From sequence record NC_010324.1: DNA of 64,000 bases; one strand, given 5' to 3'. Origin of the DNA: Escherichia phage phiEco32. The position numbers and the translations under genes were made by a program. This document shows, piece after piece, positions 28,417 to 33,956 of this stretch; position 1 is the stretch's first letter; every line of letters starts with the position of its first letter. The notes below the pieces were generated by a model. That model was not told the origin of the DNA. It was given only the letters and a program-made list of their open reading frames with translations, and ran no database searches.

Positions 28417-28701
28417 TCAACCTTTCGGGAATGGCATTAAAAACTCTACAGCAGATTTGATTTCGTTATTGATTCGTGAATCACGGTAAGAGATAAACTT
28501 ACCTTTGCTGTCACGTAACATCACATGGGTTCTGGCTGTTTTGTGAGGAAGCAAAGTGATACTGGTTGGTATAGTATCAATTCCTACAGAGCATGAATTA
28601 ATAGTCTTACTCTCTACTAGCAGATAAGACCAAGTACGCGGTTTCTGCTCCGGACGGTTGGGGTATGTGTCTCGAATCTGTACCATAGCTAACTTATTCA
28701 T
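28417..28701 (-). CDS. hypothetical protein, tandem paralog A
   Basis: 94 aa; C-terminus ...RDSKGKFISYRDSRINNEIKSAVEFLMPFPKG parallels the neighbouring gene. Confidence 0.45.
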   Translation of the reverse strand: MNKLAMVQIRDTYPNRPEQKPRTWSYLLVESKTINSCSVGIDTIPTSITLLPHKTARTHVMLRDSKGKFISYRDSRINNEIKSAVEFLMPFPKG

Positions 28702-28702
28702 A

Positions 28703-28960
28703 TTAAACTCCTTTAGGGAATGGGATGAGGTTTTCTACTGCAACACGATATTCTTTCTCTACATCTTTATTCTTATAAGAAATGAATTTCCCATCAGCTC
28801 CACGGAGGATTATATTAGTACGAGCTGTTTTTGCATTATGACCAATCTGGTTTGCAATTAGGCTGATGTTGTGTTTGACATCATGGTTATTAGTGAATTT
28901 CCACTTAGCCAGACGGTTAGTCCAAACATCGATGATAGTTACGGTTTTTACAATAGACAT
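28703..28960 (-). CDS. hypothetical protein, tandem paralog B
   Basis: 85 aa; C-terminus ...RGADGKFISYKNKDVEKEYRVAVENLIPFPKG. Confidence 0.45.
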   Translation of the reverse strand: MSIVKTVTIIDVWTNRLAKWKFTNNHDVKHNISLIANQIGHNAKTARTNIILRGADGKFISYKNKDVEKEYRVAVENLIPFPKGV

Positions 28961-28992
28961 AGTTATTACCTAAGAAGTTTAATTTGGTTTAT

Positions 28993-29023
28993 ATAAAAGA
29001 AAAGGCCACCCTATTGGGTAGCC
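28993..29023 (-). terminator. rho-independent terminator (minus strand)
   Basis: On minus strand ggcuaccc-aaua-ggguggcc followed by uuuucuuuuauau. Confidence 0.5.
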
Positions 29024-29028
29024 TCATG

Positions 29029-29346
29029 TTACGATGAGCTTAAAGCTCCTTTGCGTGCTCCAGCTGCTTTTCCAGCTCGATCACCACTTTTGCCGCCGTT
29101 TGAACGGTTTGAGCTGACTGACTCAACACGTAAGTTGCTTGACGCATTAGAGCCTCCAGACTTGACAGCTCGTTTGTGTCCAACGTCTTTACCTCTGACA
29201 GCAGCTTTTCCATCGCGCTTTTCAACGATGCGACGTGCACGGTGGCGCTGAGCATCTCCGCTCTTGCTCCCAACGCCTGTTTCACCACGGGCAATTGCGG
29301 TACGTCTTTCTTGTGCATAATCCCTCTTTCCTACATGGTCTGCCAT
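29029..29346 (-). CDS. small basic Gly/Arg/Lys/Ser-rich protein
   Basis: 105 aa; strong AAGGAG RBS 5 nt upstream; TAATGTATA element 36 nt upstream of ATG; locally GC-rich. Confidence 0.45.
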   Translation of the reverse strand: MADHVGKRDYAQERRTAIARGETGVGSKSGDAQRHRARRIVEKRDGKAAVRGKDVGHKRAVKSGGSNASSNLRVESVSSNRSNGGKSGDRAGKAAGARKGALSSS

Positions 29347-29382
29347 TTAGAACTCCTTAATATATCAGTGTACACTAAGGAG

Positions 29383-29391
29383 TATACATTA
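29383..29391 (-). promoter_or_regulatory. candidate phage promoter element TAATGTATA (minus strand)
   Basis: Exact 9-mer on the minus strand 36 nt upstream of ATG 29346; same spacing as the plus-strand copy at 12460. Confidence 0.35.
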
Positions 29392-29581
29392 TGGATACTA
29401 TTAAAACTCTGCTAAGTATTTAATATCAGAGGCATATACCTCATCAAAGGAAATAGGCTCTCCGTTGTAGAGGAGTTCTATTTTCAGTATACCAGAGCAT
29501 TTGGTGTCTTTGGAATCAACCCTGATAGAGAGTTTGTCAACTATCTGAGCTTTAATCTCTTCTATCATTAACTCTTGAATA

Positions 29582-29767
29582 TTACTCACTCCACCCTCCC
29601 GGTGGTACAAAATCATCATGAACGTCAATGATAGTAGGTTCTCCATCATACATGCAGGTGTCTTCATTGAACTCTTCACACTCAAAACATGCTCGTTCGA
29701 TATTTTTGTAGAAGTCAATGGTTGCTGAACCATCACCACAATCTCGAATAACTAAAGCGACTTTCAT
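29582..29767 (-). CDS. hypothetical small Cys-containing protein
   Basis: 61 aa (CGDG...CFECEEFNEDTC); directly downstream of phoH. Confidence 0.35.
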   Translation of the reverse strand: MKVALVIRDCGDGSATIDFYKNIERACFECEEFNEDTCMYDGEPTIIDVHDDFVPPGGWSE

Positions 29768-31843: not shown

Positions 31844-31858
31844 CCGTGAATATCCTTA

Positions 31859-32134
31859 TTACTTATTGCTCAGGGCTGTGTCCAAAAATGCTTTCAGGTT
31901 TGCTTCAGTCTGCATACCAGAGAGGCTGTAGTGTGCACCACTGTTACGGTCAGGCACAACGAAAGCAGGGATGCTTCGTACACCATACTTAACAGCTTGT
32001 TCACGACCATCACCTTCAAGGATGTTAATCTCTTCCACTTCTACATCAAACTCCTTAACAACCTTCTCAAAGGTAGGAGCCATTGCTTTACATGGAGCAC
32101 ACTGATCACTATAAAACTTAATTACTTTAGACAT
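31859..32134 (-). CDS. thioredoxin-fold protein (CxxC)
   Basis: 91 aa; KFYSDQCAPCKAMAPTF with CAPC active site; AAGGA RBS. Confidence 0.75.
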   Translation of the reverse strand: MSKVIKFYSDQCAPCKAMAPTFEKVVKEFDVEVEEINILEGDGREQAVKYGVRSIPAFVVPDRNSGAHYSLSGMQTEANLKAFLDTALSNK

Positions 32135-32382
32135 GTAAATCCTTATGCAGTCAGGAGGTGAAGCAGGAATGGGATAACAACAGCTACGATAACCATGATA
32201 GTTGATGCTGTTTGAATCTCACCTTTCTTATCAGGAGTTTCTTCGATAAGCTTACCAGAAGCCCAATAAATACCGCCACCAATAAAGATAGCCCAAATAC
32301 CCCATACGATTGCTGATAACATATATCTATATCCTTATAAATAAGTTCGCCCCACCTCGGGTTAGGAGACAGGGCGGAGGTT

Positions 32383-32994
32383 TTAGTAAGACACGTCACC
32401 ACTTGAATGGGACATGTTGCTCTTGACGAAGTAGCAATACTTGCCAAGACCTTCATTAATTTCTTGAAGCATACTCTGATCGACTGGGTAAGTGGCTAAA
32501 TCACCATCAAACTCATCCATCTTCTCAATAATACACATCAAGGTCATGCACATATCAGAGAGCATACCGTCCATGTCTAGATCAGCATTACCCTCTGAGA
32601 ACCAAGCATGAGAGAGATAGTTAGCTGCTGTAGCATCCACTTTAACGCAGTGGTAACGCATACGTTCAGCAATACGATCTCCTACCTGTCGTGCGTAATC
32701 TTCCAGCTCATCAAACATACCATGAACACCCTGAAATCCTGCACCAGAGACGTTCCAGTGGTAGTTTTTAGCTTTGATATGCAAGAGTTCCATGTTAGCT
32801 TGTAAGCAGCTCAGGATGTGTTCTAGGCTGTTTCCACTAATCATACCCTGCATTGTTTCAAGGCGAGAGATTGATAGGTCGGACCGGTCTAACATGCTAT
32901 AGCTGTCACGACCAATCTCAGGTAAATCAAAAACATTCTTATGCATTTGGGTTTTCTCCATCAAGTTCAACTGAGTTAGCAACGTTACGTGCAA
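32383..32994 (-). CDS. Dps-like ferritin-fold protein
   Basis: LHIKAKNYHWNVSGAGFQGVHGMFDELEDYARQVGDRIAERMRY parallels E. coli Dps [26 protein letters not shown]...MAERAVQ; true start probably an internal Met. Confidence 0.55.
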   Translation of the reverse strand: MHVTLLTQLNLMEKTQMHKNVFDLPEIGRDSYSMLDRSDLSISRLETMQGMISGNSLEHILSCLQANMELLHIKAKNYHWNVSGAGFQGVHGMFDELEDYARQVGDRIAERMRYHCVKVDATAANYLSHAWFSEGNADLDMDGMLSDMCMTLMCIIEKMDEFDGDLATYPVDQSMLQEINEGLGKYCYFVKSNMSHSSGDVSY

Positions 32995-33268
32995 TATTAT
33001 CCATTACCTGCTGGGTAATTACGATGCAGTTCTGTGGGTCTACTGACTTAGAACGACCCATTTCAGGGTCATACACCTTAACTCGCTTAGCAGTTGAACC
33101 TGTAACCTGAAGAACCTTCAACAGATATCCCTGATTACCAATAGACCAAGCAACAACATCACGATTCTTGATAAAGCGACCAAGCATATCACGATGATAA
33201 AACTGTTGCATCACCTTGGATTTTGTAATCTCTTCAGTGGGCGGGGCCACTTTACTCAAATCTAACAT
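32939..33268 (-). CDS. hypothetical protein
   Basis: 109 aa; AAATGTATATAG element 40 nt upstream of ATG. Confidence 0.4.
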   Translation of the reverse strand: MLDLSKVAPPTEEITKSKVMQQFYHRDMLGRFIKNRDVVAWSIGNQGYLLKVLQVTGSTAKRVKVYDPEMGRSKSVDPQNCIVITQQVMDNIARNVANSVELDGENPNA

Positions 33269-33307
33269 AACTCTCTCCTGTAAAATACAAATTCTTATTG
33301 TACTCTA

Positions 33308-33316
33308 TATACATTT
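33308..33316 (-). promoter_or_regulatory. candidate promoter element AAATGTATA (one mismatch to TAATGTATA)
   Basis: On the minus strand 40 nt upstream of ATG 33268; followed by TAG as in the 12460 copy. Confidence 0.3.
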
Positions 33317-33340
33317 GAGAGTTATCATATCTACTACCAA

Positions 33341-33550
33341 TCAGTAGTAAATTACTTTAGACATAAAAGAACCAGTGTTAGGGTCTTCATACCAGCGATG
33401 TATGTCAGCGCTTTTTACTATTGTGCCCAGAGTCTTCAACTGTTTCTTAGCAATACGAGCCTCTTTGCGAGTGTCAAACAATTTGATGTTATCTTTTCTC
33501 ATGTGTTGCTCAAGATTCCAAACAACATGAATAGCCCACATCTTTTTCAT
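33341..33550 (-). CDS. small protein, tandem triplet member 3
   Basis: 69 aa; ends ...KVIYY; similar length and basic N-terminus to the two neighbours. Confidence 0.4.
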   Translation of the reverse strand: MKKMWAIHVVWNLEQHMRKDNIKLFDTRKEARIAKKQLKTLGTIVKSADIHRWYEDPNTGSFMSKVIYY

Positions 33551-33759
33551 TAGTAATGTACCTTTCCGCTAATATAAACACGACCAGAGGAATACTCTCT
33601 GGCCTTATGAATGCTGATGCTCTTGATCATATCCATATTAAACATAGATTTTTTAAAATCTCGAGCCTGTTGACGAGTGGGTAGTGCAGTCATAGTCATA
33701 CCACCTGATGCCCACTTAATCTTCGCTAACCAGAACTGTCTCATGGTGATTGGTCTCAT
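33550..33759 (-). CDS. small protein, tandem triplet member 2
   Basis: 69 aa; ends ...GKVHY. Confidence 0.4.
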   Translation of the reverse strand: MRPITMRQFWLAKIKWASGGMTMTALPTRQQARDFKKSMFNMDMIKSISIHKAREYSSGRVYISGKVHY

Positions 33760-33956
33760 TAATAATAAATCTTACTGTTGGCAATAAAAGAACCTTCGCT
33801 ATTCACCATAGCTCTTCCTAATGTAACCTTGTTAAGTCTAAAAGTAGATTTGTATTGATTTTTGACCCTACGTGCGTGCTCTCGAGTCTTAACAAAATCT
33901 ACAGCTACTAACTCTCCAGTCGTGTTGTCATGTACACGAACAATCCACTTTTTCAT
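33759..33956 (-). CDS. small protein, tandem triplet member 1
   Basis: 65 aa; MKKWIVRVHD..., ends ...SKIYY. Confidence 0.4.
   Translation of the reverse strand: MKKWIVRVHDNTTGELVAVDFVKTREHARRVKNQYKSTFRLNKVTLGRAMVNSEGSFIANSKIYY

Follow-up and report, generated by a model that had tools for sequence, protein, structure and literature searches.

The 64,000-nucleotide stretch of DNA analysed here (hereafter the window; Escherichia phage phiEco32, NC_010324.1) comes from a Kuravirus of the Gordonclarkvirinae, a phiEco32-like podophage of E. coli, and carries its genes from ~17 kb to 64 kb on the minus strand, as indicated by GC skew and the packing of open reading frames (ORFs). A preliminary description had drawn attention to two small sets of tandem paralogs in the replication block of this phage, a pair and a triplet, and all five ORFs were recovered on the minus strand. 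They are listed below with protein lengths in amino acids (aa), isoelectric points (pI), orthologs in phage SU10 and E values of the matches to profiles of the PHROGs database:

28417..28701, minus strand: pair paralog A, 94 aa, pI 9.9, ortholog of SU10 CDS53; phrog_6814, E=6.7e-37
28703..28960, minus strand: pair paralog B, 85 aa, pI 10.0, ortholog of SU10 CDS54; phrog_6814, E=5.1e-38
33341..33550, minus strand: triplet member T1, 69 aa, pI 9.9, ortholog of SU10 CDS69; phrog_4939, E=1e-28
33550..33759, minus strand: triplet member T2, 69 aa as the longest ORF (64 aa likely, pI 10.6), ortholog of SU10 CDS70; phrog_4939, E=6e-28
33759..33956, minus strand: triplet member T3, 65 aa, pI 10.3, ortholog of SU10 CDS71; phrog_4939, E=1.7e-26

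All five are strongly basic: their pI values are 9.9-10.6, whereas the median over the window's proteins is 6.2. Each matches its PHROGs family over the full length (E from 1e-26 to 1e-38), and both families are labelled 'unknown function'. The paralog grouping is thus already implicit in the PHROGs clustering, which comes without function, copy-number analysis or structure for either family; about a hundred genomes list the genes as hypothetical proteins, and the paralogy goes unmentioned in the SU10 and YF01 papers.

Homology within the pair is evident from direct comparison. A and B are 56% identical over their C-terminal 41 residues (BLASTP E=3e-16; E=7.8e-14 when all 115 ORFs of the window were compared with each other), each covers phrog_6814 in full (profile positions 1-86), and the motif GKFISY...PFPKG is found in both, which bears out the shared C-terminus originally proposed. 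Three elements are conserved across the family: the hairpin TARTNVxLR(G/D)xDGKFISY, a short helix and, in a poorly ordered tail, the motif LxPFP. In B, the C-terminal half (TARTNVxLRGxDGKFISY...LxPFPKG) is nearly invariant, and a variable cassette occupies approximately residues 12-43 of the N-terminal part, with at least five very different versions seen. Non-synonymous divergence (dN) in this N-terminal segment reaches 0.5-0.7 with synonymous divergence (dS) saturated, as compared to a dN of 0.01-0.07 and a dS of 0.2-0.7 in the C-terminal half. We considered positive selection on the variable half and rejected it, as high dN with saturated dS speaks of old alleles and not of demonstrable positive selection; the cassettes point to recombination among such alleles. 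The AlphaFold2 (AF2) model of B (mean per-residue confidence, pLDDT, 83; built, like that of T3 below, with the family alignment) begins with two strands (residues 4-13 and 16-23), continues with a helix (29-42), a third strand (49-54) and a second helix (69-76), and ends in a tail of low confidence. In several public records, the gene at 28703-28960 and the one upstream of it at 29029-29346 (minus strand) are labelled 'autotransporter adhesin', a label for which neither Pfam nor any other support was found.

The triplet is more divergent. T1-T3 are only 19-29% identical to each other, their pairwise BLASTP values are marginal (3e-4, 9e-4 and 0.09), and no triplet pair appears in the all-against-all BLASTP list of the 115 window ORFs at E<0.01. 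Their homology is nevertheless established, because all three match phrog_4939 over its full length (profile positions 1-67; E ~1e-27), because full-length profile-profile alignments (hhalign, ortholog profiles, 92 homologs) are significant for every combination (T1/T2 1.1e-10, T1/T3 1.4e-6, T2/T3 3.2e-6), and because natural T1 variants with a T2-like C-terminus exist (e.g. P0086 and P0087). Significant similarity is therefore seen by BLASTP within the pair and at the profile level within the triplet, and both tandem sets stand as first described.

One detail of the triplet needs correction. The three proteins had been given as 65-69 aa long and ending in aromatic dipeptides; the endings are indeed YY, HY and YY, and the length of T2 is probably overstated. 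Its phrog_4939 match begins at residue 6, and because many T2 orthologs are 64 aa long and begin at the equivalent methionine, the true start is most likely the sixth codon, Met at 33744, giving a protein of 64 aa. The C-terminal Tyr is the last residue in 21/21 diverse family members aligned, and the invariant residues in alignments of 36 and of 21 diverse members are W4, T24/R25, A28/R29, K32 and Y65. The family can accordingly be recognised by a signature that its members carry: a length of 65-82 aa, a Trp in strand 1, the motif T-R-x-x-A-R-x-x-K opening helix 1, Tyr as the last residue, and a position after dcd (dCTP deaminase) or before thyX. In the AF2 model of T3 (pLDDT 86) the order is strand-strand-helix-strand-strand with residues 25-38 helical, and from their spacing R25, R29 and K32 would share one face of the helix. 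The stop codon of T2 overlaps the start of T1, and that of T3 the upstream ATG of T2 (TAATG in both cases), which suggests that translation of the triplet genes is coupled and that the proteins are made in similar amounts. Two metagenomic T3 variants of 79 aa, P0074 and P0089, have lost the normal ...NSKVYY end and carry ~20 unrelated residues instead, as though a frameshift had carried the reading frame beyond the usual T3 stop and into the region of the following gene.

Both arrays occupy defined slots. In the direction of transcription, the gene order is primase-helicase, nucleotidyltransferase, dCTP deaminase, T3 (whose start adjoins the deaminase stop codon), T2, T1 and a promoter-like site; then a 109-aa gene, a Dps-like gene, thioredoxin, ThyX, PhoH, the gene at 29029-29346 and a terminator-like hairpin; and finally B, A, a 53-aa gene, a 137-aa gene and DNA polymerase. 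The features that delimit the slots are as follows:

33957..34490, minus strand: dCTP deaminase (dcd), by ortholog annotation and PF22769 DCD on metagenomic orthologs; upstream anchor of the triplet slot
33308..33351, minus strand: predicted promoter-like region directly 3' of the T1 stop, with sigma-70-like hexamers and AAATGTATA
32939..33268, minus strand: conserved 109-aa gene, phrog_10984, directly 3' of the array in every relative examined; downstream anchor of the triplet slot
29002..29025, minus strand: terminator-like hairpin and T-run, predicted by consensus scan (10-pair stem, 6 GC pairs, tail TTCTTTTATA) and visible in the sequence as well
25979..27823, minus strand: DNA polymerase; downstream anchor of the pair slot (pair, 53-aa gene, 137-aa gene, polymerase)

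The hairpin, a strong one, sits between the gene at 29029-29346 and B, directly upstream of the pair. The region from 27.8 to 34.5 kb is 92-96% identical to many Kuravirus phages of Escherichia, e.g. EK5, KM01, Paul and SkaterBoy_Bas90, and for wider comparison we used SU10, KBNP1711, EP335, Bas90, Bas94 and 101114UKE3 (Suseptimavirus), together with metagenome contigs.

The families are universal within the lineage, with individual copies coming and going. Among 97 Gordonclarkvirinae records of a phage collection, defined by a DNA polymerase at least 80% identical to that of the window, the pair family (B) was found in 97/97 and a full-length A-like copy in 88; T2 is the universal triplet member (97/97), followed by T1 (93) and T3 (63). 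Copy numbers were also compared locus by locus, by profile searches of fetched loci in the slot between dcd and the 109-aa gene, which holds from one to four triplet genes:

1 copy: metagenome contig L018
2 copies: Bas94, Suseptimavirus 101114UKE3, contig L020
3 copies: the window, SU10, EP335, KBNP1711, contig L019
4 copies: contig L016

Bas94 is without T1. An extra triplet-family member lies directly upstream of thyX in KBNP1711, Suseptimavirus 101114UKE3 and contig L022, and is absent from the window. The slot before the polymerase holds one or two pair genes: two in most genomes of all three genera, B without A in EP335 and Bas94, and a single copy in the same position, with synteny kept, in contigs of 82-90 kb with 73% polymerase identity. 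A 90-kb relative with a polymerase at this level of identity (contig L014) encodes a triplet-family member at 3182-3466 (profile E 1e-6), immediately downstream of DNA polymerase, which would be a third location for this family. Word-indexed searches of 5.8 billion proteins returned matches from Kuravirus-like contigs only. An exhaustive profile search of 1.84 billion cluster representatives with the triplet family gave 34 clusters, of which 33 were real, 65-79 aa long and with the same signature, and every context examined was the dcd or the thyX slot. A 707-aa protein with 7 repeats (P0198) was rejected as a repeat artefact.

A, B, T1 and T2 each form an orthogroup common to Kuravirus, Nieuwekanaalvirus and Suseptimavirus, and because these orthogroups span three genera, the duplications are, on this phylogenetic evidence, old and predate the split of the three Gordonclarkvirinae genera. 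Neighbour-joining trees, only indicative as they come from short alignments, likewise group A with A, B with B, and T1, T2 and T3 each with their own kind across genera, and paralogs of the same genome are only 19-37% identical overall. Later evolution is mosaic, and loss and recombination have shaped the present pattern no less than duplication has: T1 of the window and its counterpart in KBNP1711, which belongs to another genus, share 97% identity (dS 0.03), whereas the adjacent T2 and T3 reach 55% and 51%. The ratio dN/dS is 0.08-0.46 for all five genes against their Bas90, SU10, KBNP1711 and Suseptimavirus orthologs (0.08-0.09 for A), compared with 0.03-0.06 for dCTP deaminase. We take this to mean that the five are conserved coding genes under purifying selection which evolve faster than the neighbouring enzymes. 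That these families arose by old tandem duplication in fixed slots, followed by birth-and-death evolution and recombination under purifying selection, we regard as very nearly certain.

Timing of expression can be suggested by homology. In SU10, the orthologs of the pair (CDS53/54) are middle genes and those of the triplet (CDS69-71) are the last three genes of the early block, with a middle promoter upstream of CDS68, the counterpart of 32939-33268 in the window (PMC4281155). In the window, AAATGTATA at 33308-33316 (minus strand) has one mismatch to the phiEco32 sigma-factor motif tAATGTATAtA, and an exact copy of the promoter motif, TAATGTATA, lies at 29383-29391 (minus strand); both sites coincide with middle-promoter positions given in the SU10 paper. 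With one mismatch allowed, the motif shows no window-wide enrichment (20 found against 20.4 expected from shuffles). By analogy with SU10 and phiEco32, the triplet would close the early block just ahead of a middle promoter, and the pair would be middle genes. The original placement of both sets in a 'replication block' is therefore to be refined: by SU10 homology, the pair belongs to the middle genes and the triplet to the end of the early block.

Functional clues are sparser. Neither the five proteins nor 45 + 49 homologs scanned singly gave a Pfam or NCBIfam match near the cut-off, profile searches of the PDB with both family alignments returned nothing informative, and the AF2 folds, confident small alpha/beta structures, found no informative PDB match. 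The best overall explanation, which we hold to be probable, is that the genes form two families, each confined to this phage lineage, of small (64-94 aa) alpha/beta proteins with a strong basic charge, and that old tandem duplication expanded each family inside a fixed genomic slot. More tentatively, we propose that their basic surfaces bind nucleic acid or an acidic partner within the surrounding replication and nucleotide-metabolism machinery. In the triplet family such a surface might be formed by the helix motif T-R-x-x-A-R-x-x-K together with the invariant Trp and the invariant C-terminal Tyr, and in the pair family by the beta-hairpin RTNVxLR(G/D)xxGKFISY followed by the invariant LxPFP tail; different specificities would then come from the paralogs and from the exchangeable N-terminal cassette of B. 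We favour binding of this kind because every relative retains a member of each family, the slots lie at fixed places next to dcd, thyX and the polymerase, and the conserved residues are basic. Several points weigh against it. Basic charge alone is weak evidence; the loss of A, T1 and T3, the fast divergence and the cassette variation fit dispensable host-interaction genes at least equally well; and SU10 proteomics detected several neighbours but none of the five, a result that says little as small basic proteins are hard to detect.

It is possible, if short of probable, that the five are instead host-takeover or anti-defence proteins, each paralog and each B cassette blocking a different host protein, with an arms race driving duplication, loss and recombination. 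This would account for orphan families confined to one phage lineage, for the varying copy number in which A, T1 and T3 can be lost, for at least five very divergent N-terminal cassettes on a conserved C-terminal half of B, for mosaic exchange between genera and for early or middle expression as deduced from SU10. It would also fit the report that Gordonclarkvirinae are unusually resistant to restriction-modification and other defences with no known modification pathway or inhibitor (PMC11990801). However, at least one member of each family is present in all 97 relatives and in more distant contigs, fixed among replication genes, which has more the look of a core function; dN/dS stays below 1 almost throughout, with the saturated dS of the cassettes marking old alleles; and the fold similarities are not significant. 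An acidic DNA-mimic surface, as in the uracil-DNA-glycosylase inhibitors Ugi and phi29 p56, was not found either, the proteins being basic. The anti-defence and the binding explanations are not mutually exclusive. A more specific version, in which one or both families are factors behind the broad defence resistance of Gordonclarkvirinae, for instance by coating or marking phage DNA as it enters or replicates, or by blocking defence nucleases, strikes us as improbable; if true, array size and the B cassette would tune which defences are countered.

Could the pair and the triplet be branches of one very old superfamily that diverged beyond sequence recognition? In both models an opening strand-strand-helix-strand leads through a Gly turn into another strand, both families are basic, and PsaD, ERH, Dmd and RepB' recur as structural neighbours of both models. 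Nevertheless, hhalign between the two family profiles gives a probability of 0.15% (E 0.39), the shared neighbours are all low-scoring and the fold is a common one, and the pair family has an extra helix and tail; a common origin is thus unlikely. Finally, that the similarities arose by chance or that the ORFs are not genes, to which the weak pairwise BLASTP values of the triplet might lend some colour, is already refuted by the profile-level significance, the presence of conserved ORFs in 97 genomes and numerous metagenome contigs, dN/dS well below 1, confident AF2 folds and the tight packing of genes on the coding strand.

Comparison with known systems yields partial likenesses. The class II small proteins of T7 (gp2, gp5.5, gp5.7 and gp5.9) are encoded among replication genes and often act on host factors. 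They resemble the proteins described here in being short, interleaved with polymerase and nucleotide-metabolism genes, and expressed before the late genes. In contrast, the T7 proteins are single-copy and several are acidic, whereas the phiEco32-like families are basic and multi-copy; no relationship in sequence or fold was searched for, and none was met by chance. T4 Dmd, a 60-aa phage antitoxin blocking the RnlA and LsoA toxins, appears (as chain 5hy3_B) for both AF2 models below significance, with 10-16% identity and no common motif, and no Dmd chain came up in the PDB profile searches at E<=10; we treat it as a lead only.

E. coli SSB (...DDDIPF) and T7 gp2.5 and gp4 (...DF) have acidic C-terminal tails that end in an aromatic residue and dock onto polymerases. 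The invariant last Tyr of the triplet, as well as the conserved, poorly ordered tail of the pair with its (I/M/L/K)PFP, recall the SSB and gp2.5 tails. Unlike in these, the PF of the pair is not at the last residue, and an acidic aromatic-ended docking tail was not found in the triplet sequences, whose tails are neutral or basic (...NSKIYY, ...SGKVHY).

Closer to home, 88-aa proteins encoded upstream of the polymerase in 7-11-, GAP52- and Privateer-like phages (e.g. Cronobacter phage vB_CsaP_009 and Proteus phage P59) resemble the pair family in position, and the two have in common an MSKLV... start and a hairpin, RTN(V/I)xVRDxxxG(K/R)F. Unlike the pair family, these proteins are single-copy, have a longer middle part and carry no C-terminal helix or PFP tail. 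Local hhalign of an 88-aa protein against the pair family gave E 4.3e-5 and a probability of 69%, and global hhalign a probability of 11%. Because this class had been retrieved partly through two such sequences in the query profile, homology was judged from the independent hhalign only; the 88-aa proteins are probably distant tail-less relatives.

Gordonclarkvirinae are common and therapeutically used phages of E. coli whose biology after injection has barely been studied. Tandem duplication of small accessory genes is familiar in phage genomes, and the present case leaves that understanding unchanged. What is added is the definition of two conserved orphan families, each with a clear signature and a fixed setting in the genome, and the recognition of Bas94 and EP335 as natural 'deletion' variants (of A and T1, and of A, respectively). 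Taken together, these offer an inexpensive way into genetics with those BASEL isolates that grow on E. coli K-12.

Repeated local duplication had been suggested as a feature of this genome. It holds for at least four places, counting the pair, the triplet and two further cases, and in the pair and the triplet it is not recent. One of the additional cases is a Q/N-rich structural pair between 8737 and 10770, confirmed as a duplication:

8737-9789 and 9802-10770, plus strand: Q/N-rich ejection-protein pair; BLASTP E=9e-11, both phrog_4287 'DNA ejection protein'

Its Q+N content is 26%, against 9.9% on average. The other is a larger family of small proteins said to span 49.6-55.2 kb, where at least four related small early proteins lie within 50.1-55.2 kb. 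The early region at 49665-55202 (minus strand) contains at least two groups of related small proteins, the first at 50164-50505, 52017-52307, 54476-54694 and 54942-55202 (cross-matching phrog_7832, 6570 and 16423) and the second at 49665-49919 and 49919-50164 (cross-matching phrog_12612 and 7431).

Some observations concern neighbouring genes. The Dps-like gene at 32383-32994 (minus strand) is variously labelled 'integrase', 'DNA binding protein' or 'ferric iron binding protein' in GenBank; its orthologs carry the Pfam Ferritin domain (Dps-like), and 'integrase' looks like a mis-annotation, the phage being virulent. In Bas94 (contig L007, 7698-10248), the annotation has the DNA polymerase gene interrupted by an insertion that carries an endonuclease VII gene, and HNH endonuclease genes are inserted at differing places among relatives (L007 2447-2941; EP335, L008, 3911-4393). 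The small genes found directly after dcd in some relatives, namely SU10_072 and genes for 63-66-aa membrane proteins, were considered as triplet-family members and rejected. The latter are unrelated predicted membrane proteins encoded between dcd and the array (L003 2950-3141, L006 7295-7486, L007 1430-1630); they end in a conserved ...CEINLPRxQVCVMQFVPxSVDR, and the window is without such a gene.

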